The notes beneath the pieces are model-generated. The model had not been told where the DNA came from. It was given only the letters and a program-made list of their open reading frames with translations, and did no database searches. Source: Leptolyngbyaceae cyanobacterium (GTDB lineage: Bacteria > Cyanobacteriota > Cyanobacteriia > Phormidesmidales > Phormidesmidaceae). From it: 64,000 nt of DNA. The position numbers were made by a program, and so were the translations under genes. The first letter of the stretch is position 1; each line of letters starts with the position of its first letter. Below are positions 12,976-64,000 of the stretch, in pieces. The stretch is from positions 1,408,001 to 1,472,000 of the forward strand of contig CBDHHL010000032.1 in the NCBI GenBank assembly GCA_965263355.1. The letters run 5' to 3'.

Positions 12976-13039
12976 CTACAGGTAAGATTTGTTAAGACTA
13001 CAGGTAAGATTTGTTAGAACTACGGTTAGATACATTAAG
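12976..13039. repeat. 22-bp direct repeats in the divergent promoter region between two GT4 genes
   Basis: CTACAGGTAAGATTTGTTAAGA / CTACAGGTAAGATTTGTTAGAA / degenerate CTACGGTTAGATACATTAAG. Confidence 0.8.
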
Positions 13040-13089
13040 TCTATTGTTATTATTGTTTCCGCGTTATTCATAATTTATTTAAGGATAAG

Positions 13090-14037: not shown

Positions 14038-14050
14038 GTAACCTTCCACC

Positions 14051-15115: not shown

Positions 15116-15183
15116 AGTGTTATAAAAACATAGATTTTCAGGCTGAGTACATTAAGGAGTTTAATCGCTTAACGGAGTCAGTT

Positions 15184-16104: not shown

Positions 16105-16243
16105 GCAGGCAATGATTTATCCCACGTGCCTAAACAGATTTATATGGAATGCTACGTAGCTTTAATGGGTAGTTCTAACGTTGTAAAAACTGGATGTAGT
16201 CGTGACTAATTTTTATCAGAGATATTTATTGGAATGGGCATAA

Positions 16244-29820: not shown

Positions 29821-30063
29821 AGGCAATCTAAAGCACCCATTCGCGTGGGGTTAACCACACTGTGAATCTACGCTTTGATATTTCAGTGCTAAATGATAAT
29901 TTCATCCCAACTTTATACGTCTTTGCAATATACCTCACTTTTCTTACCTTTTGCACATTAGGTAAGTTTGGTGCATTGAAGTAATAGAAGTGAGGTGATT
30001 GATAGGTTCCTTCTCTTTGACACCTTTGCAACTAGTGTTTTCAGCTAAAGTTCGGCTATGGCT

Positions 30064-33014: not shown

Positions 33015-33095
33015 ACCCACCCCGGAGCCCCTCCCAGGAGGGGAAAAGTTGTCCCGAGTGCCAGTGAGGGTTGTGGTAGATAGTTTTGCTAATCT

Positions 33096-35037: not shown

Positions 35038-37788
35038 CTACGTCAAATGGGTAGACGGGCACTGATTGGTGGGTTTGCCTAATAAGCTGCTAATTAATTG
35101 CTGATTTTCTTCACTCTCAGTTTGCTGGAGATATTCTAGGGCAATTTGGCCGACGGCAGGTTTTTCCTGGGAAATCATAACCAGTTGTTTTACAGTTTGT
35201 TGTAGTTGAATTCGCTTTAGTCGCTGGTTTGCCATAATAACAAATGCCAGGATAGACAGCCCCCAGGAGAGGACCGCCGGCAGCAAGGGTAACCATAAGC
35301 CTGCTAAAAAACTGGCATAACAGAGAAGAAATAGGACAATAAAACCCAGCGTGGCAATTGTTAAAACACGTCTCGGGGATTTGAGCCACCAAACCATACT
35401 GGTGCCCATCAATGCCCACATCAGCCCCCACAATTGTTCCTGGGGCTCCGACCATGTGTTTAATAGCGGTCGTTCATCCAGGGCTGCGGCTAACAGCTGA
35501 CTGATAATATTGGCATGGACTGCGATGCCCGCCATTTCCTCCTGGGGAAGTCCAAACCAAAAGGTATTGTAGGGGGTACCCACCAGGTTTTGGACACTCT
35601 CGGCAATGGGACCAACCAGAACAATGCGATCGCGCATCGCCCCTGTGGGTACATTTCCCGTCAATACTTGCTGTAAAGAATAGGTTTGGAATTTACTTTG
35701 AGTACCCCAATAGTTAATCAAGATTTGATAGCCACCATCATCTGCCCGGACATAGCCGCCATGATTACTTCGGAAGGGATAAAGCGTGGCCTGTCCTAAC
35801 CGAACGATGTGGGAAGACTGAGGTAACTCATTTGGATGAATGCCATCCGCCTTCAAATAATCTAAAGTTAGCTTTAAGGCAAGACTATGACGAAGTTTTC
35901 CATCGGGTGTACGCAGAGAGAGCAGGGCTCGCCGTAGGTTACCATCAGAATCAAATACCTGGTCTGTAAATCCTACCTGGTCAAGGCTAGCCAGTTGGAC
36001 AGGAGGTGCCACCTGGGTGCCAACAACTTTTTCAATGCCTACTAGATTCGGCATTGTGGCAAATAGCTGGTTAAGCTGTTGTGTGCCTGGTTCAACAGGC
36101 AAATCACGATAAAAAATTAGACCAATTTGTCGGGGTTGCTGAGCCGCCAGCTGTCGTAGGACATCCGCAATCACTTGGTCAGGAATAGGATAGCGGCCTA
36201 TCCGTTGTAAATCTGTTTCATCAATGGTAACTAGGGTAATGCGAGGATCCATCGGCACAGTGCCATGGCGTAGTTGAAAAAAACCATCTAGCAACGTCCA
36301 TTCACTTCCCTGTAGCCAACCGGTCAGACACAGTAACCATACCAATAGAGCCGTTGCCCCGCCCACCAAGAAAACCCACCAGGGAGGAATACGTAACCGC
36401 TTAACCCGTTGTCGGCTGGTTAATTTTGCCTGGGCCAGTACCTGATTGGCTTCGCGGGTAACCGCCAGGGCAAATTGAATTTGTTCTCGCTGTTGTTGTT
36501 CTTCTTCTAACTGAGTTTCAATACGGTATTGTTCTTGTTGTTGGCTAATTCTCAAAAAACGATAATCTAAATCGCTCAGCTGTTTTTCATCAGCCCAGGC
36601 AATGGCTTCTTGTAAGGCCAACCCTTTAAGCAGACAAGTTGCGTCCGTTTGCTCGGTGGCAATCCAGTTATCAAAGGCGGCTGAATAAGGGCGCAGTAGG
36701 GATAACTGCCGCGTTACCCAACTATTGTTAAAGATATTTCGGTAAATTGGATTTTTAACTTGGAGATGTCCCTGACGATTGACCACTAGTCCTGAGAGAA
36801 GTAGCTCCGTTTGTTCCCGACTCCCGTCACAGGGAACGTCCTGGTTTGCTAAGATTTGCTGATAAAGCCCTAGTAAACGCCCCGTAAGGGTGGGTTGGTT
36901 GAGGATGCGATCGCGAATAGTCCTCAAATGTTCAGGCTCATCGCGAGTTTCCCAATTTTCAATCAATCGGGTTTGCACTACCCAGTTGATCCAGTTAGTC
37001 TGGGCTGCAGAGTCTGTCGGGGGAGGGGCTGCTTCGATCAGCTGCTGACATATTTTTTGAGTCAAAAACGGTTGACCGGCGGTCCATTCCAACACATCCG
37101 CCAGGTGAGAGGGCGACAGACCTAGCCCTTGCAATCCGGTGGCCAGGGGAGTGGCTTCTGCTAGCGAAAAGCCTTCCAATGTAATCGCTTGGCCAATATT
37201 AAAAGGCGTTCGTTGCCTATCCTGGAGTAAATCAGCTGGACTGGCTACCCCAAACATAGCAAACGTAATACGATGATAGTTGGGATCTATAGCACGTCTG
37301 TTATAGCAGTGGCGAATCGTCGCGAAAAAGTCATCAACCGCAAAGGGAAGTCCCAGAACATTGTCAATTTCGTCTAAAAAGATATAGAAATGGTCGTCTG
37401 GATATTGGGCCAGAAGTTGATCCCCAATAAAACGACTAAATTTCTGGGGTAATGAGACATCACGTTGGCACTGCCACCAGTGTTGAAAGTGCTCCTCATT
37501 AGGCAGCCGTAGATCATGCCATAGTTCAGCCAATAGCCCTTTGTACCACTGTATAGGCGTTACCCGTTTACTGCCGATGCTGGTTAAATCTACCATGGCA
37601 CAGCGATGGCCTGCCTGCTGCAGTCGGAACTTTGTCCGCACCATGAGGGAAGACTTGCCCATCTGCCGAGAATTGAGCACATAGCAAAATTCGCCTGCTG
37701 TGAGTGCTTTTAGCAAGCTCGTATCGGTCTGTCGCTCCACATAGGTGGGATCTGTTGCATGCAGAGTGCCACCAACTTGATATCGCAT
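35038..37788 (-). CDS. AAA_35 (STAND-like) ATPase fused to CHASE2 sensor domain
   Basis: YQVGGTL..YVERQ, LNSRQMGKSSL, IFLDEID; TM; CHASE2 motifs DPRITLVTIDETD, D.DG.LRR, GIAVHANIISQL; three C-terminal TM helices. Confidence 0.9.
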   Translation of the reverse strand: MRYQVGGTLHATDPTYVERQTDTSLLKALTAGEFCYVLNSRQMGKSSLMVRTKFRLQQAGHRCAMVDLTSIGSKRVTPIQWYKGLLAELWHDLRLPNEEHFQHWWQCQRDVSLPQKFSRFIGDQLLAQYPDDHFYIFLDEIDNVLGLPFAVDDFFATIRHCYNRRAIDPNYHRITFAMFGVASPADLLQDRQRTPFNIGQAITLEGFSLAEATPLATGLQGLGLSPSHLADVLEWTAGQPFLTQKICQQLIEAAPPPTDSAAQTNWINWVVQTRLIENWETRDEPEHLRTIRDRILNQPTLTGRLLGLYQQILANQDVPCDGSREQTELLLSGLVVNRQGHLQVKNPIYRNIFNNSWVTRQLSLLRPYSAAFDNWIATEQTDATCLLKGLALQEAIAWADEKQLSDLDYRFLRISQQQEQYRIETQLEEEQQQREQIQFALAVTREANQVLAQAKLTSRQRVKRLRIPPWWVFLVGGATALLVWLLCLTGWLQGSEWTLLDGFFQLRHGTVPMDPRITLVTIDETDLQRIGRYPIPDQVIADVLRQLAAQQPRQIGLIFYRDLPVEPGTQQLNQLFATMPNLVGIEKVVGTQVAPPVQLASLDQVGFTDQVFDSDGNLRRALLSLRTPDGKLRHSLALKLTLDYLKADGIHPNELPQSSHIVRLGQATLYPFRSNHGGYVRADDGGYQILINYWGTQSKFQTYSLQQVLTGNVPTGAMRDRIVLVGPIAESVQNLVGTPYNTFWFGLPQEEMAGIAVHANIISQLLAAALDERPLLNTWSEPQEQLWGLMWALMGTSMVWWLKSPRRVLTIATLGFIVLFLLCYASFLAGLWLPLLPAVLSWGLSILAFVIMANQRLKRIQLQQTVKQLVMISQEKPAVGQIALEYLQQTESEENQQLISSLLGKPTNQCPSTHLT

Positions 37789-38067
37789 AGGCTATAGCAA
37801 TTTTCTATGGCGATTCTGTTATTAATACTTCAAAAATAGAAAAATACTGCATCTGTTTTCGCTTATATTCAATTATTCAATAGGATGACCTAAATCATAG
37901 CAACAACAACTCAGTTTAATTTGTACTACTTTAATCTTCACTGGATAAGGCCTAAATGTCTTTAAGCATTAGAGGTGTTAGGCAATACAAATCTGAAATT
38001 ACTCACTTTTCTCACTATTTTCTCACTTGGACGACCTAACGGTACGGCAGTCAGAAGGGGACAATAT

Positions 38068-38092
38068 TCCGAACTCCGAACTCCGAATTCCG
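38068..38092. repeat. Heptamer short tandem repeat (STRR-like)
   Basis: TCCGAAC TCCGAAC TCCGAAT TCCG; related repeats at 50515-50555. Confidence 0.65.
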
Positions 38093-38194
38093 TAGGGCTT
38101 TGCCCTTCTCGCAGAGTACTCTAGATCTCTGAGAAAATCGTCCCGCTTTATATTGGTACTCCTCCTAAATTTAATCCTTGTTATCTAATAACAT

Positions 38195-39601
38195 TTAGTG
38201 CACAAGGGCATCTAACTGATGGCTGAAATAAAGACGATAAAGTTCGCAACTTGGCTTAACTAGGGTACGCTCAAACCGAATTAGCCCCAAACTATCAAGC
38301 TTATAACTAGCAATGGCATCCAGGGCAATTCCTTCCTGACTGGTAACCACCTGATAATAGCTGGTTGCTATGGCTGGATCACTTTGGAGCATTGTCAGAT
38401 AGTTCTGAAGATGATGGCGATAAATCCCCTCGCTGGTAGCAGCCGTGGACACAATTTGCCCCAAAGACCTTTGGCCTTGCTGCAATGTATAAAATGCCAA
38501 CCCAGCTAAGTAAGGATGACCGTTGATCAGATGGTAAAAAGAAGGCAGCGATTGCCCGGAGGGTTCATGCAAAAACCTTTCCACACCATAATGATGGGCC
38601 AGGGTCGTCAACTGCTCCAGGGTAAAGGGGATTAATTTAATCGGCAAACCCACGTTAAAAGGAGATTGATTTAAATGCAATGGTACATAGAGATCGGTAG
38701 CGTGAACCAGGACCAGCCGTAGTTTTTGCCAAATAGCACTATCTTTAGAGCGTTCATGCCATACCCGTAGCATGGGCAAAAAGTCTTGGACAATAGATTC
38801 GTATTCAAATATGCGATTCAGTTCGTCAATCCCTAACACCAGGGGAGCCGCAATCTCTTTCAATAGATAGCGCTCAAAGTAAAGCTTACAATTGACTTTA
38901 CTACCCATTTCTACGTCCCACATGGCCTCTACCTTAGACGGTAGCCCCAGTTGCTGACTGGCATTCGCACATAACCAACGAAGAAATCGATCCAGGCGAT
39001 CAAAAATTTCTCGGTCAACTTCCTGAAAATTTAGGGTAACGGTATGGTATCCCTGACGACGACCATGGGCTAGCAAGCGATTGAGCAAGGAACTTTTGCC
39101 CATGCGACGAGGGCCTTTAATCCTCAATAGACAGCCAGGGTAGTCTAATTCGCTAAAAGCATTGGTTTCCAGCGGTAGGCGCTCAACATAGAGCGGCGAC
39201 TCTAACGATAAGGGGCCGGATGGAAATCGTCTTGCCGCCATGGCATAGTCTACCGTTGGCAGCAGGTGATAATTTATGGTGTCAGGCAGTGGCTCTAGGG
39301 TGGGGCTAATGCTGATGTGGCGTGATATCGGTGAGTTAGTGATCGAAGCTTGCTGCAAACGGTTGGGGGTCAACATCAACCGCAGACTTTTTTTGCTGAC
39401 GTTTTCGCCTAAGGCAACAGAGAGTTCTGACCACAGCTTAGAGCCGATCTGCTTGATATATTCCGTAGCATAGCTGGAGCTTTGGGCGATCTCAGCATAG
39501 CTACGCTGAGACCAAGACTCATTTAAGACCAAGCGCTCCAGCGTTCCCAACGGTCGTTGTAATAGCTGTTCTACTTCAAGTACAAGCGTATCTACATCCA
39601 T
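38195..39601 (-). CDS. N-terminal HTH + AAA_35 (STAND-like) ATPase
   Basis: W.QRSYAEIAQ...IKQIGSKLW..LS.ALGENVSKK HTH; SPLYVER, Walker A GPRRMGKSS, LGIDE, QSPFNVG. Start placed at ATG 39601; the ORF is open from 39685. Confidence 0.88.
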   Translation of the reverse strand: MDVDTLVLEVEQLLQRPLGTLERLVLNESWSQRSYAEIAQSSSYATEYIKQIGSKLWSELSVALGENVSKKSLRLMLTPNRLQQASITNSPISRHISISPTLEPLPDTINYHLLPTVDYAMAARRFPSGPLSLESPLYVERLPLETNAFSELDYPGCLLRIKGPRRMGKSSLLNRLLAHGRRQGYHTVTLNFQEVDREIFDRLDRFLRWLCANASQQLGLPSKVEAMWDVEMGSKVNCKLYFERYLLKEIAAPLVLGIDELNRIFEYESIVQDFLPMLRVWHERSKDSAIWQKLRLVLVHATDLYVPLHLNQSPFNVGLPIKLIPFTLEQLTTLAHHYGVERFLHEPSGQSLPSFYHLINGHPYLAGLAFYTLQQGQRSLGQIVSTAATSEGIYRHHLQNYLTMLQSDPAIATSYYQVVTSQEGIALDAIASYKLDSLGLIRFERTLVKPSCELYRLYFSHQLDALVH

Positions 39602-39759
39602 CAGAGAACAAGGTTGAGCTATAAAACAATTAGCGCTCAAAGATAATGCTAGACAGGCTCTACCATTACCAAGGTCGGTGAGCACTGAATATTGGTTTGA
39701 CGCTAGATTTTACAGAATCCTACCATTTTCGCTGGGGAACCTTGACTCCGGAACTCGTC

Positions 39760-40218
39760 CTAGGCTGCTTTCACAAGGACCGTGTCTCCCTCAATCATGG
39801 CATCATAGGCATCTAGCGGTCTGACGGCAGGTCCAACCGTTGCGGTACCGTCCGTGGCAAATTTTGAACCATGACAGGCACAGGAAAATTCTTTTTCCTG
39901 CCAATCAACGGTGCAGCCTTGGTGGGTACAGGTGGCATTGAGGGCAATCACACTGTCGGTATTAGCTGGGTCGCGCACTACGATTACAGCACCAGCTGCC
40001 AGGCCTTTCTTGGTCACAAAGCCTTTGGCGTCTAAATCTGCTACCGTGCCGACGGCAACAAAGCCATCGGTTCTGGAAGCTTCATTGGCTGGAGTTGCAG
40101 TCCCTTCTGTGGGGGTATCCGATGCGGTTTCTTTTGGGGTGCAGGCTGCGATCGCAACCGGCAACGATGTGGCCAAAAATCCCAACCCGACAAAGTTTAC
40201 AAATTCACGACGTTTCAT
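39760..40218 (-). CDS. Rieske [2Fe-2S] lipoprotein with Tat signal (PetC-like)
   Basis: MKRREF twin-arginine signal, lipobox IAAC, CTHQGC and CACHGS. Confidence 0.92.
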   Translation of the reverse strand: MKRREFVNFVGLGFLATSLPVAIAACTPKETASDTPTEGTATPANEASRTDGFVAVGTVADLDAKGFVTKKGLAAGAVIVVRDPANTDSVIALNATCTHQGCTVDWQEKEFSCACHGSKFATDGTATVGPAVRPLDAYDAMIEGDTVLVKAA

Positions 40219-40433
40219 AAAATGCTCCTCTCCATTCGTTATTAGCCGTTAATACCGATTCGTAGCCTTAAGCCACTGATTAGTCCGGCCAAGCCAAGAT
40301 TGCCTCAGGGGTAATAATCCCATTGCTGGAACCCCATTGGTTATCGCTGTCAGATAAAAGTGTACTGTGATCCTGAGGGTGGCAAAAGGGGTTTATTTTA
40401 CCGAATGGGTCAACGAACCCATGGGTCAAACTA

Positions 40434-41975
40434 TTATCCATAGATCACTGTTATCGTTCGTCCTGATGACGTGACAGCTGTCTCTATGCTGGTCCTTTCC
40501 GAGAGTGGTTCCGGTCCCTGGCGTTGATCAAAAATAACTAACCAGCCACTCTCTAGCCCTAGCCCTGTTAAATATCGATCCAGTTGCTTCAAGCCACGGT
40601 CCAACGGATTTGATTCTCCTTGACGCCATACCTTTAGCTCAATGCCTAATATTACTGCTCCATAGCGTAAACATAGATCCATACGACCTGAGCCAATTGC
40701 ATATTCGCGCTCCAGGATTCCACCGCCGTTCACAACTCGATGTAGAAACGCCATCATAACAATGTGTGGTGCAATCTCGTGATACGAGACACCGCGCAAT
40801 AGGGGTTGGCCATGCTGTCTCCAGAAAGCTACAAACGCATCCCGTAGAGCAACAATATCCAATTCTCCGGTTTCTGTTAGCCAGCTTGGGTTTAATCTGC
40901 CGAGGGATACCTCTGTTGTGAAGGCTAGGGTGCGGGGTAAAATTTCGCGATAAATTGGGTTGGCAATGGCTAAGTTGCCGGTTTCATCGATCCGACACAG
41001 GCCTAAATCTAGTAAAAACTCTATGTCGTCATTAGCTACTGGACCTAGCTCTTGACCGGCCAGCATGGGTTCCAAGATTGCTTGCACTCGAGTTTCTTGC
41101 AGGCGCTCAGCTAAACTATCGATGTGGGTATCGCGTCGTTGAATCAAACTCTCTCTTGCTTGATCAACTAAGTGGATATCAATGTTTTGAGTTGTATTAT
41201 CGATGAGTTCTTCAACGATTTCTTTGGCAATTGCATTTACTAACCAGGGCTGCCCCTGGGTCAGTTCAAACACGCGGGCAATGGCTGCTGGTGTAAATAG
41301 CTGACCTGTGGTGTCGGTATGTTGCTGGTATAGCTGCTGAACTTCTGTTTGGGTAAAGTTCCGCATGGTGAGCGATGCCACTTTAATGTTAAAAGGGCTG
41401 GATGTATTGAGGCGCTGACTGCCGCCAGAGGCGACTTTGTAGTCTCGAACGTCTCGCATGCCAATCAGCCCCAGGGCATGGGGAAAATGGTTAGGGCGAC
41501 GGGATGCGCCATCGCGCAGCTGGCGTAGAATGCCGATAAGGATATCGTCTTGTAGGGCGTCAATTTCGTCTATAAATATGACCAGGGGGCGGGGGGAGGA
41601 TTCTGCCCACAGTTGTAGGGCGGCATTAAGACGACTGCTGCTGGGGAGAGTGGACCAGTCGGGATGGAGTTCGGGGGGTAACCAGGCTCGGATTGCGCCC
41701 TGCCATGCGGTGAGGATGGCGGTTTCTGCGGCGTCCAGGGTTGGTTTGGCGGCCCCTACTTCGACGGATAGTAATATGGCAGTGTATTGGCCACTGGCAG
41801 TAAGTTGCTGGGCCAGGGTTAGCATGGCTGTTGTTTTACCGACCTGACGGGGGGCGTAGATGACGAAGTATTCTTGCTGGGTGATGATGCGCTTGACGTT
41901 TGGGAGTCGGTCAAGCGGGGGCAACATATAGTGGATTTCAGGACGACATGGACCTGCGGTATTAAACCAGGGCAT
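40434..41975 (-). CDS. AAA-like ATPase with C-terminal PD-(D/E)XK-like domain
   Basis: FNTAGPC, APRQVGKTT, IFIDEID, SPFNIK; C-terminal REYAIGSGRMDL...IELK...QLDRYL. Confidence 0.85.
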   Translation of the reverse strand: MPWFNTAGPCRPEIHYMLPPLDRLPNVKRIITQQEYFVIYAPRQVGKTTAMLTLAQQLTASGQYTAILLSVEVGAAKPTLDAAETAILTAWQGAIRAWLPPELHPDWSTLPSSSRLNAALQLWAESSPRPLVIFIDEIDALQDDILIGILRQLRDGASRRPNHFPHALGLIGMRDVRDYKVASGGSQRLNTSSPFNIKVASLTMRNFTQTEVQQLYQQHTDTTGQLFTPAAIARVFELTQGQPWLVNAIAKEIVEELIDNTTQNIDIHLVDQARESLIQRRDTHIDSLAERLQETRVQAILEPMLAGQELGPVANDDIEFLLDLGLCRIDETGNLAIANPIYREILPRTLAFTTEVSLGRLNPSWLTETGELDIVALRDAFVAFWRQHGQPLLRGVSYHEIAPHIVMMAFLHRVVNGGGILEREYAIGSGRMDLCLRYGAVILGIELKVWRQGESNPLDRGLKQLDRYLTGLGLESGWLVIFDQRQGPEPLSERTSIETAVTSSGRTITVIYG

Positions 41976-42018
41976 GAACAGCTGAAGCAAGGAGCGGTTC
42001 TATTGTAAACTGTGCTTC

Positions 42019-53725: not shown

Positions 53726-55252
53726 TTGGCAACTCCACTGGCCAATCCCCAAGTTTTGACCCACTGGCAGCGCCAATGTTTGCTACTTACGGCAGCTGTT
53801 TCCTCAGGCGTCGGCTTAGCTGCTGAGTTGTTGCTAGGGACTTTAGCCAGTTATTTAGTGGGCAACCATGCCCTGGCCTATGGCCTAACGGTGGGTGGAT
53901 TTTTGGCCGCCATGGGTATCGGAGCCTATCTGAGTAAATTTGTGGCAGATCGGGGGTTGCTGAATGTTTTCTTTGCCATTGAACTGGCCCTGGCCCCCCT
54001 GGTAGGTCTGGTGCCCCTGGCCCTGTTTGCCTTATTCGCTGCCGATGGCCCGCTGTGGCTAGGGTTGATTGGCACCACGTTGCTGCTAGGCAGCTTAGCC
54101 GGCATGGAGGTGCCCTTACTAACGCGATTGGTGGAGCTACGGGATCCCTTGCGCGATGCCTTAGCTGGGGTGCTGGCGCTGGATTATTTAGGGGCATTGG
54201 TGGGGGCTTTACTATTCCCAGCCATACTATTGCCATGGATTGGGCTATTTCCATCAGCCATGGTGATTGGCGCATTGCCAGCGGTGATGGTGGTTATCCT
54301 GGGGCAAAGTTTTCGTCAGGGGCAACCCTGGCGCTATGCCGGGTTAGCGGTGGCAATCGCTTTGTTTTTGGGGGCTCCAGCGACATTACCCATTAGCCAT
54401 TGGCTAGAAAATACACTGTATCGAGCCCCAGTGGTTTGGCGGCAACAAACCCGTCACCAGCGGATGGTGGTTACTCGTCGCCAGGGGGATATACGTCTTT
54501 TCCTCAATGGTGATTTACAGCTGTCTACGGTGGATGAGTATCGGTACCATGAGTCTTTGATCCACCCAGCCATGGCTGTAGCATCCCCCCGTCGAGTGTT
54601 GTTATTGGGGGCAGGGGATGGATTGGCGCTACGAGAAGTCTTGAAGTGGCCCACCGTAGAACAGGTCACTCTGATTGAGCTGGATCCGGCGGTGGTGGCC
54701 TGGGGGCGCAGGGCGCTGCAGGCGGACTGGTTAGAGGATAAACGAGTCACCATCCGCTATGGGGATGCATTTCGTCTATTACCTAAATTGCAGGATACAT
54801 TTGATGTGATTGTGGCGGACTTTCCTGACCCGGATCAGGTGGATCTTGCCAAACTGTATAGTGTGGGGTTTTATCAGCAGGTGCGATCGCGCCTTACCCC
54901 CAATGGTCTTTTCGTCACCCAGGCCTCCAGTCCATTCTTTGCCCCCAATGTGCTCGCCTGTATTCAAAGCACATTGACCGAAGCAGGTTTTTTCACCTAT
55001 CCCTACCGTACCGAAGTCCCTAGTTTTGGCCTCTGGGGTTTTGTCCTTGCCGCCCAATCGCCCCAGTCCCCCCAATCCTTTTCAGCCTTGGAGTTACCCA
55101 TCTCCACCCGGTTTCTAACCGCAAGACTGATGAGCACTCTATTTGTCATGGGCAAAGATCTGCAGGTAGCGACCACAGCAGTACGCCCCAATCGACTCTC
55201 AGATCCAGTAATTGTGCGTTACCAGCACGACCCACGCTGGACATTTTATTAA
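53726..55252 (+). CDS. speE: Membrane-bound polyamine aminopropyltransferase (spermidine synthase family)
   Basis: About 7 N-terminal TM helices; LFLNGDLQLSTVDEYRYHE, LLLGAGDGLALRE, IELDP, DFPDP, VPSFG.WGF. Confidence 0.92.
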   Translation: MATPLANPQVLTHWQRQCLLLTAAVSSGVGLAAELLLGTLASYLVGNHALAYGLTVGGFLAAMGIGAYLSKFVADRGLLNVFFAIELALAPLVGLVPLALFALFAADGPLWLGLIGTTLLLGSLAGMEVPLLTRLVELRDPLRDALAGVLALDYLGALVGALLFPAILLPWIGLFPSAMVIGALPAVMVVILGQSFRQGQPWRYAGLAVAIALFLGAPATLPISHWLENTLYRAPVVWRQQTRHQRMVVTRRQGDIRLFLNGDLQLSTVDEYRYHESLIHPAMAVASPRRVLLLGAGDGLALREVLKWPTVEQVTLIELDPAVVAWGRRALQADWLEDKRVTIRYGDAFRLLPKLQDTFDVIVADFPDPDQVDLAKLYSVGFYQQVRSRLTPNGLFVTQASSPFFAPNVLACIQSTLTEAGFFTYPYRTEVPSFGLWGFVLAAQSPQSPQSFSALELPISTRFLTARLMSTLFVMGKDLQVATTAVRPNRLSDPVIVRYQHDPRWTFY

Positions 55253-55270
55253 GCTATAAAGCTAGAAGTC

Positions 55271-55376
55271 ATACCAAATCCCAGTTCATATCCCCGATTA
55301 AAAATGCACCACCCCGTAGGAGTAATCCCTCGTGGTTGCCCTGCCATATTGGGCACAGGTAGTCAGGATTCCGTAT
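55271..55376 (+). repeat. ~106-bp MITE with imperfect TIRs and internal GTAG palindrome
   Basis: Ends ATACCAAATCC / GGATTCCGTAT (9/11 inverted); internal GTAGGAGTAATCCCTCGTGGTTGCCCT; homologous to 29708-29814 and 18671-18740. Confidence 0.75.
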
Positions 55377-55410
55377 AATTCAACATTAAGCCAAGTCTCT
55401 TTCACCATCC

Positions 55411-56031
55411 ATGATTCCACTCTTTTGGTTTTATGTTTTCGCAATCCTGATTGGCCTGGCCATCTGGCTTTGGGTTCGTTGGTCTCAACAATCAGGACCC
55501 CGGCGTCCACGGTCTGCCCCCACCCGTCGTCCCCCTAAAACTCGTCAGCCCACATTGTTTAATCTAGCCATCGGTGACATTGTGCAGTATCAAAACGATG
55601 ACTGGGTGGTAGAAGATATTTTGACCTACAATGCATCGGGCTGGACCTGGAAAGAATATCAGTTACAAAACAAAGATCAGGTACGCTGGCTAAGCGTGGA
55701 ACAGGATGACACCCTGGAACTTAGCTGGACTGAAACTATCCAGTTATCAGTGACTAATCCACCCCCCAAGGATATTACCTATGGCAACACGGTCTACCGG
55801 CAACAGGAATTTGGGCCGTTGACCATGACCATGAAAACTAAACCTGGGACAACGCTTAAGGGATACTACTTTGACTATGCCAGTGCAACGGGTGAAGAGC
55901 TTTCCTTAGAACAGTGGGGTGACGATGCCTCCTTTGAAGTCTCTGCTGGACATTCCCTCACACCGAGAGCATTAAATCTCCTACCCGGTGATGGCCAAAG
56001 TATTTATCGCTATGGTAGCCAAGACAGCTAA
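55411..56031 (+). CDS. DUF4178 domain protein
   Basis: N-terminal TM; LFNLAIGDIVQY, W.EY.L, WLSVEQDD, LSLEQWG; typical neighbour of speE/DUF350. Confidence 0.8.
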   Translation: MIPLFWFYVFAILIGLAIWLWVRWSQQSGPRRPRSAPTRRPPKTRQPTLFNLAIGDIVQYQNDDWVVEDILTYNASGWTWKEYQLQNKDQVRWLSVEQDDTLELSWTETIQLSVTNPPPKDITYGNTVYRQQEFGPLTMTMKTKPGTTLKGYYFDYASATGEELSLEQWGDDASFEVSAGHSLTPRALNLLPGDGQSIYRYGSQDS

Positions 56032-56032
56032 A

Positions 56033-56641
56033 TCACAAGAATAGCTCACCCATTAACAATTTATCCGTAGCCAACGTTAACGTTGGAAATACCAATGATT
56101 GAATAAGTTTAGAGTTGTCATAATAATGCTCTTTATAAGTCTCATTTATGAGAGTACAAACAACAACCTGCTGTCTATGGCGATCAATAATCCAATACTC
56201 TGGAACTTGCCACCATTCATACTGTTGCCGTTTCCATTCATAATCACGCCGATAGTTTGCACTACCTTCACTGCCTGGGCTAACAATTTCAGCGATAAAT
56301 ACGGGGGCAGGCATGTCGAAGAGGATAGCATTCTTCTTCAGACCTTTCATTAGATCGAGATGCTCAGGCTGTAGGACAATCACATCCGGTTTTCGATTTA
56401 CTCGATTATCACCCACCGGATGCACCTGTATTTCGGTGGAAGAACTCCTAACAAGCCGTCTATTGCTGACAAATTTCTTTAATAACTCAGCCAATTCGTC
56501 AGCAATAAAGTCATTTTCCGCATCTTCCGGTGGCAACTCAATTACCTCTCCAGTACTAAGCAAGCGAAAATTACCATCCGGACTGAGGTCAGCGTCCAGA
56601 TACTGTGAGTAAGTCCTATATCGTATAGATGTGTGGATCAA
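56033..56641 (-). CDS. Uma2-family (DUF820) endonuclease
   Basis: RKPDVIV, IAEIVSPG, RDY..KR.QY...VPEYWIID, IQSLVFPTL. Confidence 0.9.
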   Translation of the reverse strand: MIHTSIRYRTYSQYLDADLSPDGNFRLLSTGEVIELPPEDAENDFIADELAELLKKFVSNRRLVRSSSTEIQVHPVGDNRVNRKPDVIVLQPEHLDLMKGLKKNAILFDMPAPVFIAEIVSPGSEGSANYRRDYEWKRQQYEWWQVPEYWIIDRHRQQVVVCTLINETYKEHYYDNSKLIQSLVFPTLTLATDKLLMGELFL

Positions 56642-56782
56642 CGTTGACGTCAGGGTAAGTAACTTAGTGATTCTGATTGGAGTATAGCAAAACCGACATT
56701 CAACTCAGTTAAGTGTCTTTCCTAAGCTCATCTTTGGGATGGGCTTTTAACCATGGTTATCATAATCGTTTATGCATAATCA

Positions 56783-57391
56783 TCATAGGGGTGATTGCCC
56801 AATAACATTGCCTGGTGGTCTATAGTTATAAATCATTAATTTTCCATAAATTCTATGGGGTGCGACACCACAGCCAAGCTCCGTGGTATTCTGCCAAATC
56901 ATCTGCGTGTAATGCCCACAGGTTTCACCCTTGCATTGCCCAGTCGATAGATCATAGTTTTCTTTCTCTTCTGCCCATAAACCAAGCATTAACTCTACAG
57001 AACTACCCGCAGCAATGTTTTCCCCTGCTCCACTACGATTACCACTCCTAGGACTATGTCCAAAAGTCCCACGTCGCGATAGCTCATCTGCCCAATCTTG
57101 ATCGGTGCTAGCTAACTCGGAAGACCACGATAAAGATGGCACATTAACCTCAGCTCGCAGCTGATTATGGGTATCGAGTATTTCTTGCTCTTCCTCAGTA
57201 AGCTGTGAGGAATCTTCTGATTGCTCAGGAGTTTGCTGTAGCCTTAGGTCATTCAATAATTGTTCAACATCTGCAGACCAATTTTCTTCGTTTAAGAAAT
57301 CTTCAACTGCTGGAGACTCAAAGGCTTCTTCTAAGTCAAACGTTTCTCTGGTTAGAGTTTCAGCTACTAAAACCCCACCGACACCACCCAT
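56783..57391 (-). CDS. CAP/SCP (PR-1-like) domain protein, probably degenerating
   Basis: LDTHNQLRAEV..L.WS.ELA, GENIA, CGHYTQMIW..T..LGCG, NY.PPGN. The upstream hydrophobic leader is out of frame. Confidence 0.8.
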   Translation of the reverse strand: MGGVGGVLVAETLTRETFDLEEAFESPAVEDFLNEENWSADVEQLLNDLRLQQTPEQSEDSSQLTEEEQEILDTHNQLRAEVNVPSLSWSSELASTDQDWADELSRRGTFGHSPRSGNRSGAGENIAAGSSVELMLGLWAEEKENYDLSTGQCKGETCGHYTQMIWQNTTELGCGVAPHRIYGKLMIYNYRPPGNVIGQSPL

Positions 57392-57621
57392 ATCACTTGC
57401 GAAACGTAATGATAAGCGCTTTTACAATTTCAAACTTACCTTGATCTTATAGGTCCCCATAACCCTGATCGCAATTCACCGTCATAGTCTCTAGGGTAGA
57501 TGATGCCCTTCAAGAAATCGACTGGCGATGATTCTGTTCCAAGCAATAGGATTGTTCTAGCCCTAAGCTTTTTCAATTGCATAGGTAGCTATGTACATTG
57601 CAAAACCCTAGGGCAGTAACA

Positions 57622-58083
57622 TTAAAATTGAGACCATTGGCCAATCTTAAAGCTTGTTTGACTGTGGTGATTAAAGCCACTGATACAGTTGTGGGTAGAT
57701 GAATTGCCATCTAGGCGAAACTCATCCTCAAGAGCTTTTGCATTGATATGAAAGCCTCTGAAAAGATTACGCTGGCATTCAGCATCCATAGTAATAAGAT
57801 AGATTTGTTTTGGCTGTCCATTGACACCTGCATCTCTCATGTTTGGACGACTCATTTTGAGTTTTGATAGTCTAGTTTGAAAAGTTGCTACAGAGGGGGC
57901 TGTTGTTCGGCTTTCAAACACACAATCGGTGCAGCCGTACAACTCAATGCCGTTACCGAGCAAATCGCTACCATCTCTAATATCAGAAGCCGTGTCTGGA
58001 TAGAATAGAGCATTGCCGTTCGAGTCTTTTTGCCCAGTTGGCACGGGAGTTGGTGTGCCAATGCCAATTTTTCGAAATGTCAT
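57622..58083 (-). CDS. Hypothetical protein, possibly a gene fragment
   Basis: 153-aa ORF; the reading frame extends upstream without a start to a stop near 58165; no recognisable motif. Confidence 0.3.
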   Translation of the reverse strand: MTFRKIGIGTPTPVPTGQKDSNGNALFYPDTASDIRDGSDLLGNGIELYGCTDCVFESRTTAPSVATFQTRLSKLKMSRPNMRDAGVNGQPKQIYLITMDAECQRNLFRGFHINAKALEDEFRLDGNSSTHNCISGFNHHSQTSFKIGQWSQF

Positions 58084-58402
58084 GCCATGGCAGTTTCTGA
58101 GTCGATAGATGGGCTTTTCTGCAGTTCCTTCGTTAGCATGTATTATCTCTAGCTCGGAATAGTATTAAGCAATTGCAAAGGAAACCTTGTTTGGATTCAG
58201 CTGATTTTTCTGGTCCCTTTTAGGAGTTTGGTATTGGAATTGCGATCGCATCTATGCCGATTTTATTTTGCGATCGCACCCACCTAACTGGCTGTTATGC
58301 TCAGCTTAATTTGTAACACCTCACAAAATTTCCAGGGAGGGAGTCAAAAAAACAGCAAAGGTCATCTATAACCAAAGCCTTTAGTGAAAGACAGTATTCA
58401 AG

Positions 58403-60475
58403 TTAGAGAGTTATGTCTGGTGCAAACAAGCTTTGAAGTCTTAGCAGTTGTGCACCTCTTAAATACAACAAATCCCCCTTACCCAGCAGGTTGACTGCAT
58501 CTCCTTGCTTACCACCTAGGATAATCGCTGAATCAGCATCGCTTGCTGTTCTCAGGGCAACTCGTCCAGGCAAATTGGAACGAATCAGCGGGGTAACCAC
58601 CTGGGCATCGGGTCGTTGGGTAGCAATGATGAGATGAATGCCAGCAGCACGGGCCATGGCTCCCAGACGTTTGATGCTTTGTTCTATGGCAGTGCGGCTT
58701 TCTTTTTCTGCCATAAAGTCGGCATATTCATCAAAAATGCAAACAATTCGAGATATGGGGCTGCTGACCTTCTGATTGTAGCGAGTCAAATCTGTACAGC
58801 GGCTCTGCTCAAATCGTTGGTAGCGGCGATCCATCTCATTCATCAAAGTCTCCATCAAAGAGATCGCACCTTCGGTATCTTTTACAATGGGCTGTAATAA
58901 CCAGGGATTGGCTTCAAATTCGGGAAATGTGACGCGTTTGGGATCTACCAGCGCAATTTGTAAATGATCTGGAGAGTGGCGCTTTAGTAGACTTAGGAGG
59001 AGCGATCTCAAAAATTCACTTTTACCACTGCCGGTCGTCCCACCCACTAAAAAATGACAGGTATTGGGATCTGATAAATCTGCTTCAACTAAGTTACCTT
59101 CCAAATTAACACCAATAGCAATTTTGACCGGATCAGTAGGTGTCAGAGCCTGAGGCTGAATATATTGGTCAAACAGGGCAGACTGACGATCTGGGCGAGG
59201 TAAATCAACACTGACATAGCCTGCCTGGGGCGCAATCATTGGCGGAGCTTCCAGACCGAGCTGTACCCGTAAATCATCGGTCAGGCGCAGGATAGAATTC
59301 ACTTTCACACCCAGCTGCGGTTTGAGTTTGACTCGCAAGAAAGCAGGGGCTAAGGCAATTCCTTGTAAATCAACGCCAACGCCAAAGGATTTTAAGGTTT
59401 TTACCAGGTGCGCAGCGATCTCTTCTGATTTTTCTGGTTTTCGTGCCTTCTCTTTTGGTGTCGATGTTGGTGATGTCTTGGGAGGTCTGGGCGGCTTAAA
59501 CTCTTCAGACCTGGTCGATTTATCAGTGTTGCTAGATGTTGGTTTTTGAGAAGACGGTTCGGTTTTCTGTTTTTCTTTAGGAGCTGCTTCCGTTGCCTGG
59601 GTTTGAGGCTCAAAATAGGTTTGACACTTTTTATACTGAGGACACATATCACATAGGTCCAGCCGCAGCGTTTTCGGGGGTGGAGGGTCCTGGCCAGGAT
59701 TCCAGGCTAGCCAGTCACGGATATGCATAAGCTTTTGAGGAATCAGCTGATGTACCGTATCTTCTAGCTGAGCCCAAGGATACACCTGTTCTTGCCAATC
59801 GGGTAATACGCTATAAACTGCAGAATCGATGGGAACACCAATCTTTTCCCGCAGCATATAGCTATAGAGGGCGACTTGGGCTAGCTGAGCGGACGGATCC
59901 GGCGACTGATAGGTCTTATATTCCACCACACAGAGTCGATGATTAGCAAAGTCATACACCAGGCTGTCAAAACGTCCCTGTACTAACTGCTGGTCATTGT
60001 TGGGCAGAGTAAATGTATGTTTGACACTGAGTTCCTGGCCTAAAAATGTTTTTTGCATCACCTCCTGGGTGCTACAGGAACGACGATTGCTCACTAGTAG
60101 CTCTACCCAACGTTGAATAAGTCCCTTCAGGCCTTGCCAGAGCTGATGAAGTGCCTGGGCTTTATCGGGTTTCTCAGCAATAGTTTGCTGGAGATAGGGA
60201 AAAAAGATTATTTGGTAAAGTCGTTGTTCAAAGTTTTGTGCGATCGCTACACTATCCAGTTGTTCTGGATCCGCTGCTAACAATGTTTCAAATTCCAGAT
60301 CAGACCGCAGCTGTCGTACAAATTGCTCAGAAAGCTGGTGGAATGCACTACCAATACCCAGAGTCTTCCCTGGTGGTAAAAACATAGTCATCCCACCAAA
60401 ATGATGGCCTAAATAGAGCAAACGGGGGCACTCAAAGGCAATTCGAACTTTACTAACACTCAAAGAAGAAGTCAT
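58403..60475 (-). CDS. Cas4/RecB-like PD-(D/E)XK nuclease fused to FtsK/SpoIIIE translocase
   Basis: N-terminal FECPR, GRFD...VVEYK, QLAQVALY, CDMCPQYKKC. FtsK alpha region, Walker A GGTTGSGKS, LVDPK, IFDEYAD, ARAAGIHLIIATQRP, LLGKGD. ATG 60475 overlaps the upstream stop (ATGA). Confidence 0.9.
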   Translation of the reverse strand: MTSSLSVSKVRIAFECPRLLYLGHHFGGMTMFLPPGKTLGIGSAFHQLSEQFVRQLRSDLEFETLLAADPEQLDSVAIAQNFEQRLYQIIFFPYLQQTIAEKPDKAQALHQLWQGLKGLIQRWVELLVSNRRSCSTQEVMQKTFLGQELSVKHTFTLPNNDQQLVQGRFDSLVYDFANHRLCVVEYKTYQSPDPSAQLAQVALYSYMLREKIGVPIDSAVYSVLPDWQEQVYPWAQLEDTVHQLIPQKLMHIRDWLAWNPGQDPPPPKTLRLDLCDMCPQYKKCQTYFEPQTQATEAAPKEKQKTEPSSQKPTSSNTDKSTRSEEFKPPRPPKTSPTSTPKEKARKPEKSEEIAAHLVKTLKSFGVGVDLQGIALAPAFLRVKLKPQLGVKVNSILRLTDDLRVQLGLEAPPMIAPQAGYVSVDLPRPDRQSALFDQYIQPQALTPTDPVKIAIGVNLEGNLVEADLSDPNTCHFLVGGTTGSGKSEFLRSLLLSLLKRHSPDHLQIALVDPKRVTFPEFEANPWLLQPIVKDTEGAISLMETLMNEMDRRYQRFEQSRCTDLTRYNQKVSSPISRIVCIFDEYADFMAEKESRTAIEQSIKRLGAMARAAGIHLIIATQRPDAQVVTPLIRSNLPGRVALRTASDADSAIILGGKQGDAVNLLGKGDLLYLRGAQLLRLQSLFAPDITL

Positions 60476-62463
60476 GCGGGGACGTAGCAAATTAACTGGG
60501 CTTCACGGCTTGCCTGGGGATCAAGCAGTTGCAGACGTTTCTGATCACAGAGGGTTTGAATTTCTTGTTCAATCTCCTGCTCCTTAATATTAGAGAACTG
60601 TTGCCGTGTTGTTTCAATTAATACCAGCAGTCCAATAAAGGATTGTGTTGCCATCAGGTTAACAATATAATCTGCTACGGCTTGGCTGGGGGGTGTAGGT
60701 TCCAAGTCACCTTCCACAATCTGTAATTTTTGCAATAGGGGACACTGATCTAACACCCCTGATTCTCGCACAACAGCCTGCAAGTCTTTCAGATGAGGTG
60801 TTTGATCACCCAGCACTAGCTCGCCAGCGCGGGCGGCACTGGCAAGCTGATGATAGGTTTCCAAATATTGCACCGAGAGTAAATCGGGCTGAAAATGGGC
60901 ATAGGATGCTTTACCATTAAATATCTGATAATAGATTTGATTTCCTTTGGTTTTTGACTTGCCTGTGCCAGCGGCACGAATTAAATAAAGGCAATCACAA
61001 ATGTCTTTATCAATTGCTTTCTGACAGGCTTTCATCACATGAAAGAATGTGTTCATGTTTGGGTCTTCATTCCAAACGATACCCATTTTCAATTTTTTGT
61101 GTCGATGTGAGAGAGAGTAAGATGCATATTTACTACCTTGCAAAAACTGAGTTTCTATTTGGGAGACCTCCAGAGCCTCTAATACCTGACGTAGCCGCCA
61201 GATCAATTCTGGAGAAGTAAACTGGCCAATTCGTGTTACAGCTTTTTGGTTTGCCTGAAATTCTTTATCCCAAATCAGTTGAAAGCTAGGTTTTAGAGCT
61301 GGTGGCGGTGACGGTGACGGTGGCGGTGGCGAAACTGATTTATCGGGAAGTTTACTGTACTGCTTATAGTGGGTAATTAATCTTCGACCCAGATCTAGCG
61401 CTGTACGGGGTAAAGTGCGTTTTCCAGGAAATGCGTGAGCAAGCCAGTCGTGACTAAGGGGAGCAATCTCAGTTTCCGGCGTTGGTGTGACCTGAGCATG
61501 TAGAGGTGCTAACCGACTTGCCCACAATGCTTCTGCTTGATCCAAATTAATTCGTTTAAGCCGCAAGATGTCATTGATGCGTGCCTCGTCTGCTGGTTGA
61601 ATCTGTTTACGATATTCGCGCCAGGTACCTGTCACAATACTGATAAGTACTAAAAAATTATGCAGATTTTCATTATGAATTGTGGTGTTTAGATGGAATA
61701 ACCGCTGCAGATCGGGTTTATTATTGGCTAGCCTGGGAATACTATCTAAGTTGTCAAAACATAGAACAATCGGCTGAGTAGAAGTGGCAATGCGCCCAAT
61801 GTTATTGAGTATCTTTTGCGCGGCGTCTTCAGAATCGATCGGCTGCTTTACTCGCAGTGTTTTAAGCTCTTCTTTGTCCAGGTTATCGCCTTTTAACCAG
61901 GCATAGGCCAGAATACGCAGCTCAGGATTGGTGGCCAAGTCATAAAGTACGCCGAAAAACTCCCTGCCGTTATATACAACTGGGAAGCTGGCATGTAAAT
62001 CTTGAATAAACTTTCCTCGTTCCCCTAGCACCCATTTAGCCAAGCTACGCTGATGCAGACTAGATATCCCCTTAAGCCAGAGCAACATCTGTGATTCCGA
62101 TTGCCCTTCGGGCACTTTAACCAGGCTATCGACCACATTACGTAACGTATGCCGCCAGAGATAGTTACTATCGGGCCAGGGGCCGATGTAGGCAAAAAAA
62201 GCGTTATCGTTGAGCTGCCGCTTTAGACGTCCGAGAAGATAGCTTTTGCCTGCACCTGAATCACCCGTCAATAAAAGTGTTTGAGTTTTGTGATCCGTGC
62301 TAATTTGTTGGAGAGTATGACTTATGGCGTCCAGAATTTCTCCATGGATAGTGTCAACTTCCATGACTGTGTTTTGGCTTTCCTGCCAAAAATTACCAGG
62401 TCGGAAGCTACTCCGATCAAAAGGGTTTAACTGACGCTGAATAATCTGTTGAAGCGAAGTCAC
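60472..62463 (-). CDS. P-loop ATPase (AAA+/STAND-like; RcaG-like by position)
   Basis: Walker A GDSGAGKS, Walker B VLCFDNLD, Pro-rich linker, C-terminal helical/wHTH-like region. Confidence 0.8.
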   Translation of the reverse strand: MTSLQQIIQRQLNPFDRSSFRPGNFWQESQNTVMEVDTIHGEILDAISHTLQQISTDHKTQTLLLTGDSGAGKSYLLGRLKRQLNDNAFFAYIGPWPDSNYLWRHTLRNVVDSLVKVPEGQSESQMLLWLKGISSLHQRSLAKWVLGERGKFIQDLHASFPVVYNGREFFGVLYDLATNPELRILAYAWLKGDNLDKEELKTLRVKQPIDSEDAAQKILNNIGRIATSTQPIVLCFDNLDSIPRLANNKPDLQRLFHLNTTIHNENLHNFLVLISIVTGTWREYRKQIQPADEARINDILRLKRINLDQAEALWASRLAPLHAQVTPTPETEIAPLSHDWLAHAFPGKRTLPRTALDLGRRLITHYKQYSKLPDKSVSPPPPSPSPPPALKPSFQLIWDKEFQANQKAVTRIGQFTSPELIWRLRQVLEALEVSQIETQFLQGSKYASYSLSHRHKKLKMGIVWNEDPNMNTFFHVMKACQKAIDKDICDCLYLIRAAGTGKSKTKGNQIYYQIFNGKASYAHFQPDLLSVQYLETYHQLASAARAGELVLGDQTPHLKDLQAVVRESGVLDQCPLLQKLQIVEGDLEPTPPSQAVADYIVNLMATQSFIGLLVLIETTRQQFSNIKEQEIEQEIQTLCDQKRLQLLDPQASREAQLICYVPA

Positions 62464-62506
62464 TGTTTTTGATCTACTTTTTTAACAACGTAATATTATT
62501 TTCTAT

Positions 62507-63442
62507 TCACTCGATTACACTGATATAGAACAAAGCACCGCCGATTGGTTGGGAAATCCCTGCTGCTGCTTGTTCTTCACTGTATTCAATAACATCTTGT
62601 AGGGTGCTGAATTCAATTAGATCCTGACTTTGTAATTCAAACAAGATTTTGTCTAAACCATTTCGGTCGAGGGGCGGCTGTAACTTTTCTCGCAAATGAA
62701 AGATTGGTAGAAAATTGTCCGTATCTAATTGTTGATCCAGTATTCTAATAGTTTCTAGCACCGACTCTGGCGATATATCACTAACGTTGGCAATGATCTG
62801 AGAAGGTGCTAAATATTGTTTCTCTGTTAAACCAGATTGGTTTTTAGGAAAAATTTCAGCTATTTCAGACTTACCTAAAAACTGTCGTAGAAAAGATAGG
62901 TAGTTGCCCAACAGTGCAAACTTTAGATCAGCTCTAGGTTGAGTTGGCATATAGTCATGTAAGAGATAGCGAATGCCATCTTGGGTTAACCAGACATCTT
63001 TGATCTGATCTTTAGTGATCTGAATCAACCCTTGAGCATCAAGTTCATAAAGCAATCGGTGTCGATCTTCCGCTGGTACCTTCTTAGCTTGACTAGGTGT
63101 AGTATAGGATTTAGCTTGCGCTGCTTTTTGCAGTAGTTCTAACTTATGCGGAGATAAGGTTATAGATAACTGCTCGGGGTCTGAATTCAGCAAACTTTTA
63201 CCAGGTGGTTCTATCCGATATCGTTGTACTTCGTTTGCATACCCTATCAACCCCTTAGCACAGAGGCTCTCGCATGCTTTATTCCGTTTTGATGTATTGC
63301 CTACTTCAATTTTACTGATACGAGTTCGATAGTCTGGGATATTTCCCAACAACCGCAGCAAAAATTTTAATTCTATAGATTCTAATTTGAGCGAAGATAG
63401 ATCCATAGGATTTATGGTTTCGATAGCAATAGAACATTTCAA
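62507..63442 (-). CDS. rcaD: RcaD-like DNA-binding protein (winged-helix repeats)
   Basis: ELKFLLRLLG..DYR, DVWLTQDG..YL, C-terminal DNFLPIFHLREKLQPPL.R..LD..L..LQ..D.IE.STLQ...GI.Q..GG.LF resemble, from memory, proteins annotated RcaD. The start may be ATG 63406. Confidence 0.6.
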   Translation of the reverse strand: MKCSIAIETINPMDLSSLKLESIELKFLLRLLGNIPDYRTRISKIEVGNTSKRNKACESLCAKGLIGYANEVQRYRIEPPGKSLLNSDPEQLSITLSPHKLELLQKAAQAKSYTTPSQAKKVPAEDRHRLLYELDAQGLIQITKDQIKDVWLTQDGIRYLLHDYMPTQPRADLKFALLGNYLSFLRQFLGKSEIAEIFPKNQSGLTEKQYLAPSQIIANVSDISPESVLETIRILDQQLDTDNFLPIFHLREKLQPPLDRNGLDKILFELQSQDLIEFSTLQDVIEYSEEQAAAGISQPIGGALFYISVIE

Positions 63443-63684
63443 TCAGCATAAAAAAATTAGAACTTCATAAATAGAAGGACTATTGCTTCTTGTATGAACT
63501 GATTATTCCCTATAGTTTATGAAGGTAGCTCAAACACGTCGAGGCTTCTTTATAAAAGCTATAAGATCTTGCGATAGTTCCATCTTTATGCGTCAAAGTC
63601 AAGCATTCATGGTAGCTGCTGTTTCAGCGTCATAGCCCATTCGGACGTCCCCAAATGGCTAAAGTAAGAAAAACCTCGTAAACG

Positions 63685-64000
63685 ATGGTCTACAGTGACT
63701 TTACAATCAATGCTATTAAAAGGCAGTTTGGGGTGGAGCTGATTGAAGATCAGGCGTTGTTTGCTAATGTTGAGTCCCAGATGCCGCCCCAGTGGTTATC
63801 GGACTTTTTAGAGATGCACCTACCCCTAGCTAACGCCATTGGCACAGAGAAAGCCAAGTCAGAATTTATTGTAGCTCCGATTTTATCGGCTGCTCGGGAG
63901 TTGTTAGAACGCCAGATTAGTTTGTTCTCTGGAATTGAGTTTACGGTGGATAAGGAGTAGGGGCTAACCGGACACTGTGATTAGATTCTTAGTCGGTCGC
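63685..64000 (+). pseudogene. Cyanobacterial restriction-endonuclease-like hypothetical family member with in-frame stops (runs off window)
   Basis: MVYSDFT...TEKAKSEFIVAPIL...SLFSGIEFTVDKE*GLTGHCD*ILSRS: family-like sequence continues through two TAG codons. Confidence 0.7.

Follow-up and report, generated by a model that had tools for sequence, protein, structure and literature searches.

Orc/CDC6 "HerA/FtsK capture systems" have been predicted by Rakesh, Aravind and Krishnan (Nucleic Acids Res 2024, PMC10853773). As outlined there, such a system has an Orc/CDC6 ATPase with an inactive restriction endonuclease (REase) domain before its winged helix, an active REase belonging to one of two nuclease families, a HerA/FtsK motor with an FtsK-alpha domain, and a protein with two to four winged helices related to DndG/SspB; sometimes a 3'-5' exonuclease is fused. 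An anti-invader role was proposed, and the winged-helix protein was named as fast evolving. The capture idea is repeated for a related system in PMC12839542. The class stands as a prediction: in a search that mostly covered literature outside subscription, we found no bench test of it and no paper linking it to RcaD. RcaD and RcaG of Calothrix/Tolypothrix PCC 7601 are described as regulators of light acclimation (Noubir et al. 2002, as summarised in PMC2799420), and the main text of PMC10853773 mentions neither RcaD nor cyanobacteria, Cas4 or AddB. Are the two related? Here we analyse a cassette of three genes, A, B and C, in a 64-kb stretch of a Leptolyngbyaceae cyanobacterium (contig CBDHHL010000032.1; the whole stretch is called the window below), whose closest relatives are filamentous cyanobacteria. 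Judged by sequence, the cassette is a real, conserved, accessory operon that fits the predicted capture class.

The three open reading frames (ORFs) are co-oriented on the minus strand. Gene A (62507..63406) encodes an RcaD-like protein with three winged helices, assigned from a predicted model and its fold matches; the recorded protein has 299 amino acids (aa) from an ATG at 63406, and 311 aa are possible from an upstream TTG at 63442. After a gap of 43 bp comes gene B (60472..62463, 663 aa), an RcaG-like Orc/Cdc6-type AAA+ ATPase, recognised by its predicted model, fold matches and motif counts. Gene C (58403..60475, 690 aa), assigned by Pfam, conserved residues and a profile match, joins a RecB/AddB/Cas4-type nuclease to an FtsK motor and overlaps B by ATGA at 60472-60475. 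A first-pass annotation of this DNA had proposed three co-oriented genes with exactly this gap and overlap, and the coordinates reproduce both. It had also stated that the window holds no CRISPR array or cas1. A repeat search of 55000-64000 gave no array and no outstanding terminal repeats, and there was no Pfam match to Cas1 among the 35 of 50 long window ORFs that were scanned. Promoter and terminator scans were at chance or below.

In protein C, the nuclease (residues 1-290) is followed by a low-complexity linker and then by the FtsK alpha domain and motor (340-690). Pfam places PDDEXK_1 at 4-284, FtsK_alpha at 340-426 and FtsK_SpoIIIE at 444-622, and the C profile matches a solved FtsK structure with an E-value of 4e-70. 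The conserved residues are D170, E185, K187, Q200 and Y204 in the nuclease and K485, D582-E583 and R638 in the motor. Four cysteines, C16 in FECPR and C275, C278 and C284 in CDMCPQYKKC, do not vary in any of the 43 homologues aligned, so the RecB-type nuclease with a 1+3 cysteine pattern fused to FtsK, as first described, is borne out. This arrangement around a RecB-type site binds an iron-sulphur (Fe-S) cluster in AddB and Cas4, and by analogy the cysteines of C probably carry one too. Unlike AddB and Cas4, C has no AddA or Cas1 partner, and it scores 25 on the Cas4 model TIGR00372 against a cut-off of 65. With cellular FtsK/SpoIIIE it shares the alpha-beta motor but differs in having neither a membrane-anchor nor a gamma domain of Pfam: its N-terminus is the nuclease and the chain ends after the motor. 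Its score on PRK10263 is 149 against 1566.

Is the nuclease kept active? Of 39 FtsK fusions, 36 keep the RecB-type catalytic set (one with D for E), as does the window copy, and the FtsK motor motifs are intact in all 39. Three fusions have a dead nuclease (L004:10023-15337, L066:816-6067 and L056:6025-13973). All four cysteines are kept in them, and each has an intact stand-alone nuclease gene nearby. This pairing suggests that selection retains DNA cutting and that the cysteines have a structural role. Another stand-alone copy, the fourth (L052), is itself dead and has no FtsK beside it. At the N-terminus, 31 of the 39 fusions are longer by about 190 aa or more, and this additional region matches 3'-5' exonucleases; the C of the window lacks it. 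A distant relative of 1348 aa, P0452, combines an AAA ATPase, a PD-(D/E)XK nuclease, FtsK-alpha and the FtsK motor in one chain. As a separate observation, a Ser/Thr kinase adjoins the dead fusion in L004 and is fused into C in L056, and in L066 a related gene of similar size lies between the fusion and the stand-alone nuclease.

The model of protein B has a predicted local distance difference test score (pLDDT) of 90 and a predicted template modelling score (pTM) of 0.90. It divides into an AAA+ core (1-375), an alpha/beta insert (390-585) and a C-terminal winged helix (586-662). Pfam gives AAA_16. The best fold matches are Cdc6/ORC, TnsC and BrxC with Z of 13-15, and Foldseek concurs. In detail, Cdc6 1fnn has Z 14.0 and a root-mean-square deviation of 4.0 over 243 aligned residues, Orc1/Cdc6 2qby has Z 13.5, and TnsC and BrxC are tied or close. 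The fold also resembles MuB, and residues 586-662 match winged-helix domains with Z of 10-12. Searches of sequences in the Protein Data Bank (PDB) with B and with its insert returned nothing significant, and a profile search collected 2096 clusters at E 0.001. The insert has the helix and strand order of the restriction-endonuclease fold and no D..(D/E)xK motif. Its possible nature as an inactive nuclease gained no match in Pfam, PDB sequences or Atlas, and hhalign against two small nuclease profiles gave scores like those of the three controls. As for the ATPase site, Walker A is intact and Walker B reads CFDN. In 90 B homologues, K73 and the sensor arginine R353 are invariant, while the second position of Walker B is occupied by N in 51, by Q in 36 and by E in just 3. 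Since the Walker B glutamate is lost, B may be read as a switch that binds ATP and hydrolyses it slowly or conditionally, although an acidic residue two places on could replace the glutamate.

Protein A (model pLDDT 88) has winged helices at about 10-74, 77-151 and 208-299. Its fold matches over 4-158 and 208-299 are winged-helix proteins with Z of 7-8.8; DndG, SspB and FokI are not among the 50 matches listed, and Pfam gives nothing above cut-off. The third winged helix is the most conserved part (60% versus 44%). A prediction of the A-B complex scored 0.62, while the best of three controls scored 0.00; the mark for this score is reached by 116 of 157 solved pairs and by 2 of 215 mismatched pairs. 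The runs share at least 53% of contacts, and the partner pLDDT is at least 74. In the predicted contacts, residues 230-294 of A lie on residues 68-69, 277-304 and 344-361 of B, which are the P-loop, the sensor and the lid. The prediction supports binding of A to B, with the third winged helix of A placed on the nucleotide pocket.

A likeness of A and B to RcaD and RcaG had been noted at first sight, and the comparison confirms it. Many homologues of A at about 40% identity carry the database name "transcription factor RcaD", and in one large family of cyanobacteria an rcaD-like gene occurs in 158 of the 331 genomes sampled. A is 42% identical over its full length (E 1e-65) to the protein P0292, which is very likely RcaD itself, given its 285 aa, the length in Table 2 of PMC2799420, and its Tolypothrix label; the accession CAC39267 is not among the four listed for it. 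Genome G670 encodes P0292 exactly. This gene is followed by an ATPase gene whose product is 44% identical to B, so that a winged-helix gene followed by an ATPase gene is common to both loci. Directly after the ATPase gene comes that of an exonuclease-nuclease-FtsK protein of 853 aa, 58% identical to C and with all motifs intact, while the published summary of RcaD/RcaG names no nuclease-FtsK gene. The neighbours of the P0292 locus are glycosyltransferase genes and parA, not phycobiliprotein genes.

How close is the cassette to the described systems? With the capture systems, as far as they are set out in PMC10853773, it shares an Orc/CDC6 ATPase whose winged helix is preceded by an insert, an active restriction-type nuclease, an FtsK motor with the alpha domain, a separate multi-winged-helix protein and, in many relatives of C, a fused 3'-5' exonuclease. 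It differs in that the C of the window is without the exonuclease, and in that B is the exchanged gene in one set of close genomes here, whereas the winged-helix protein is the fast evolving one there. A defence FtsK/HerA motor beside winged-helix proteins is also found in DndH/SspH, MADS Mad8 and BREX-related capture (BRC) systems, and an Orc/Cdc6-type ATPase accompanies the motor in Ssp, BREX and BRC (PMC10853773; PMC12839542, as described there). PADLOC returned no matching system, and the protein sets of Ssp/Dnd, MADS, BREX and Sir2-HerA gave no full-length matches: the SspH and mad8 models match the motor domain of C only, the match to B covers only the Walker A stretch, and A has none. 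The architecture itself is not new, as it had been predicted in PMC10853773. What the present data add to that prediction is an intact C at the likely RcaD locus, replacement of B alone by old, divergent alleles among six close genomes, predicted docking of A on B, loss of the Walker B glutamate in B, and a stand-alone active nuclease near each of three dead fusions.

The linkage of the three genes was surveyed in 401 sampled genomes and in metagenome loci, the best 72 of 171 confirmed stretches. B was found in 50 genomes (49 full length). An FtsK-like match to C was found in 48 genomes and spans the full length in 38; each of these 38 has B as well, and in 35 of them the two are adjacent. Among loci with sufficient flank, A is found upstream of B in 50 of 56 from genomes and in 53 of 56 from metagenomes; nuclease and FtsK lie downstream of B in 38 of 58 genome loci and 25 of 36 metagenome loci. 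The proposed conservation as a three-gene unit therefore stands. The distribution is patchy: in one family 29 of 120 genomes have B, and in one genus 6 of 41, against 40 with rodA. Many of these genomes are incomplete, so that a missing B means "not found". Broken copies and remnants also occur among the surveyed genomes. The cassette is conserved as a unit, accessory and dispensable. Tandem paralogues of B exist as well, in the orders A-B-B, A-B-B-A-B-C and B-A-B-C, and the A-B-B loci have no adjacent C. They are located at L036, L038, L043, L046, L049, L051 and L054 and, in metagenomes, at L211, L212, L218 and L245.

Then which gene varies most? In six close genomes that carry the cassette at one site, the identities are 92-99.7% for ParA, 87-94% for C and 78-94% for A, and 48-91% for B; glycosyltransferase identity at the same site is 85-95% in five of them. 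Synonymous divergence (dS) of B is 0.86-1.75 in 13 of 15 pairs, while ParA, A and C have dS of 0.12-0.63. Nonsynonymous divergence (dN) is well below dS throughout. The six B genes occupy four separate places in the tree, and a single clade is rejected by the approximately unbiased test (p-AU 1.3e-6). The high dS together with the scattered tree places indicates, at the sequence level, that B is replaced in place by old divergent alleles, through recombination or through differential loss of tandem paralogues. Close relatives can carry distant alleles of B: monophyly of B is rejected for seven genomes of one RpoB clade (p-AU 6.5e-6), a group picked once the trees had been inspected. Such variation is as expected of an immune specificity gene. 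As the most variable part in this set of close genomes is the ATPase and not the winged-helix protein, specificity may lie in B. Of the first interpretation, the three-gene unit and the Fe-S-type cysteines hold up; its proposal that the winged-helix protein is the recogniser agrees less well with the variability of B in this set.

What might the cassette do? We consider that it defends cyanobacteria against phage or plasmid DNA by capture and degradation, with a probability of roughly 60%. This rests on the domain match to the predicted class, the linkage, the patchy distribution, the B alleles, the intact nuclease motifs, the predicted A-B complex, and the Septu, toxin-antitoxin and other genes found in one interval that can also hold the cassette. 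In the genus with B in 6 of 41 genomes, two copies of the cassette sit between rodA and alaS. Among 21 such loci, the 11 with both anchors range from nearly empty to carrying Septu, toxin-antitoxin, TPR and cyclase-STAND genes, and the loci ending at contig ends add NACHT, Fic and helicase-methyltransferase genes. In one rodA-alaS interval a complete Septu pair (PtuA/PtuB; L002:3890-5838) lies directly upstream of the cassette. In the scenario we favour, the first two winged helices of A would hold the A-B complex on DNA, and the third would dock on the nucleotide pocket of B. B would be the ATP-binding switch or the loader, and its allele would determine which invader or DNA structure is recognised; once activated, B would load C. 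Having no anchor and no KOPS-reading gamma domain, the FtsK ring would take its place and direction from B. It would then pump double-stranded DNA into its own Fe-S nuclease and, in most relatives, into a 3'-5' exonuclease as well.

Several observations weigh against defence. RcaD is reported in PMC2799420 as a promoter-binding regulator, with DNA binding ascribed to its C-terminal region; this is not easily reconciled with the docking role predicted for the third winged helix. The genes flanking the cassette are mostly housekeeping by Pfam, in a scan of 146 proteins, most of them single representatives of the families among 237 flanking genes, and without a matched control, with scattered toxin-antitoxin, Uma2 and transposase genes; enrichment in defence islands, named at first as a point to test, is not apparent. 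No Cas1 family member is among these 146 proteins. A self-marking methylase is not linked among the flanking proteins either, which leaves the discrimination of self from non-self unaccounted for. In one large clade the position of the cassette is fixed, with glycosyltransferase genes on one side and a core parA on the other. Distances of B and RpoB correlate (Spearman 0.63, Mantel p 0.0005, 35 genomes), and together with the fixed site this implies that much of the inheritance is vertical. A second set of close genomes shows joint divergence of A, B and C, with no swap of B alone. Furthermore, 11 of the 49 genomes with full-length B have no full-length C, and C lies far from B in the 3 genomes where the two are not adjacent. 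Only one of 72,556 plasmid records has the cassette. The signs of mobility are mixed: patchiness, several sites, one plasmid and a hotspot in one genus on one side, a fixed site and vertical descent on the other.

Could the cassette serve the host chromosome instead? It might be an optional machine for segregating or resolving the numerous copies of the chromosome, or for processing broken ends, that replaces cellular FtsK, perhaps together with ParA. The cellular protein is missing from most cyanobacteria, with an FtsK homologue identified only in Anabaena according to a review (PMC7766704), and the FtsK-like matches to C counted above were likewise few. In 15 genome loci C is followed, on its own strand, by a parA of 294 aa. 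The nuclease also resembles AddB, and B resembles initiators. Yet parA occurs in 107 of the 401 genomes, often without full-length B or C: 45 have a close orthologue, and of these 22 have full-length B and 17 full-length C. In 20 parA loci from genomes lacking B there is at most one small remnant of the cassette. Allele exchange in B, and presence in so few members of one genus, are also atypical of maintenance genes, so we regard this role as unlikely. It is a little harder to credit that C, when triggered, degrades the host chromosome, in abortive infection or in programmed death of filament cells. In its favour, the neighbours hold no linked methylase or other self mark, the Walker B of B resembles that of switch-type NTPases, and Ser/Thr kinase genes or domains lie beside C in some loci; a processive motor, though, would be of little use to a suicide nuclease.

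Two further explanations bear on the origin of B and on the part played by C. As B matches TnsC and MuB in fold as well as Cdc6, it might act as they do in a selfish or domesticated module of mobile elements. The single plasmid copy mentioned above is complete and lies near an IS21 element on a conjugative plasmid, and the GC content at third codon positions (GC3) is 0.33-0.42 in genes A, B and C versus 0.47-0.59 in the genes at 47-56 kb. Such a module is improbable nevertheless: no transposase or integrase recurs beside the cassette, terminal repeats do not stand out, 50,697 phage records and the viral contigs contain no match, and the site is stable across a large clade. Finally, A and B might be a pair of transcription regulators, as RcaD/RcaG in light acclimation, with C an incidental neighbour. 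RcaD is reported to bind the cpc2 promoter, a Lyngbya homologue bound a promoter in vitro (both PMC2799420), and A-B pairs without C do exist. But B is present in every genome with full-length C, the two are fused in P0452, and the likely RcaD locus has an intact C right after B among glycosyltransferase genes and parA. This last explanation seems to us very improbable.

Returning to defence by capture and degradation, a more specific scenario may be offered tentatively, and we think it rather less likely than the general one. RcaD and RcaG, known for two decades as regulators of light acclimation, would direct a widespread cyanobacterial immune machine to its target. The exchangeable B, taken from an old allele pool much as the specificity subunit of a restriction system is, would sense the invader, the last winged helix of RcaD would gate the ATP site, and activated B would load a nuclease-FtsK ring that shreds DNA, with no methylation mark to separate self from non-self. 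If the cassette is a defence system, the database label "transcription factor RcaD" is misleading. The predicted class would also gain a compact three-gene test case with a natural series of alleles, and the cassette may be one barrier to the introduction of DNA into filamentous cyanobacteria. With exchangeable B alleles and a predicted A-B interface, the class lends itself to direct testing.

Some candidates for membership were rejected. ParA as a fourth subunit is ruled out, since parA is widespread and persists without the cassette. No phosphorothioate, methylase, PglZ or TGT partner recurs beside the cassette. The minus-strand ORF at 57625-58083, which lies downstream of C, encodes 153 aa and has no Pfam or PADLOC match, was excluded together with the ORF at 56786-57391, both having zero matches in 301 loci. 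FtsK-like matches in G148, G184:C57 and G099:C32 belong to other elements with no A or B beside them. G148 (L090 and L091) and G184 (L092) have in common a conserved series of genes that includes another FtsK-like ATPase; G148 has it twice, and it looks like an integrated conjugative or transfer element.

Other features of the surroundings may be noted. The site next to the core parA is often taken by a separate gene pair, whether or not the cassette is present: a ParA whose N-terminal domain, of about 160 aa, is unannotated, and a ParB-like gene (L076:5788-7895, L097:8979-11095, and 9 of the 20 loci L273-L292). On the plus strand of the window at 63685-63960, divergent from A, a short ORF has a weak PD-(D/E)XK-type match and may be a truncated gene; a stretch 88% identical to it sits near the cassette in L132. 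Elsewhere in the window, the region 5376-17140 is low in GC (35-44%, GC3 0.25-0.38), carries polysaccharide-modifying-type genes and was possibly acquired. A large gene for a TPS-domain exoprotein adjoins a TPR-CHAT protease gene at 23516-29826 on the minus strand. At 30975-34208 on the plus strand, a LodA-like oxidase gene is followed by a flavoprotein gene as a LodA/LodB-type pair, and at 35041-41990 on the minus strand there are three consecutive AAA_35-type ATPase genes, one of them fused to CHASE2.

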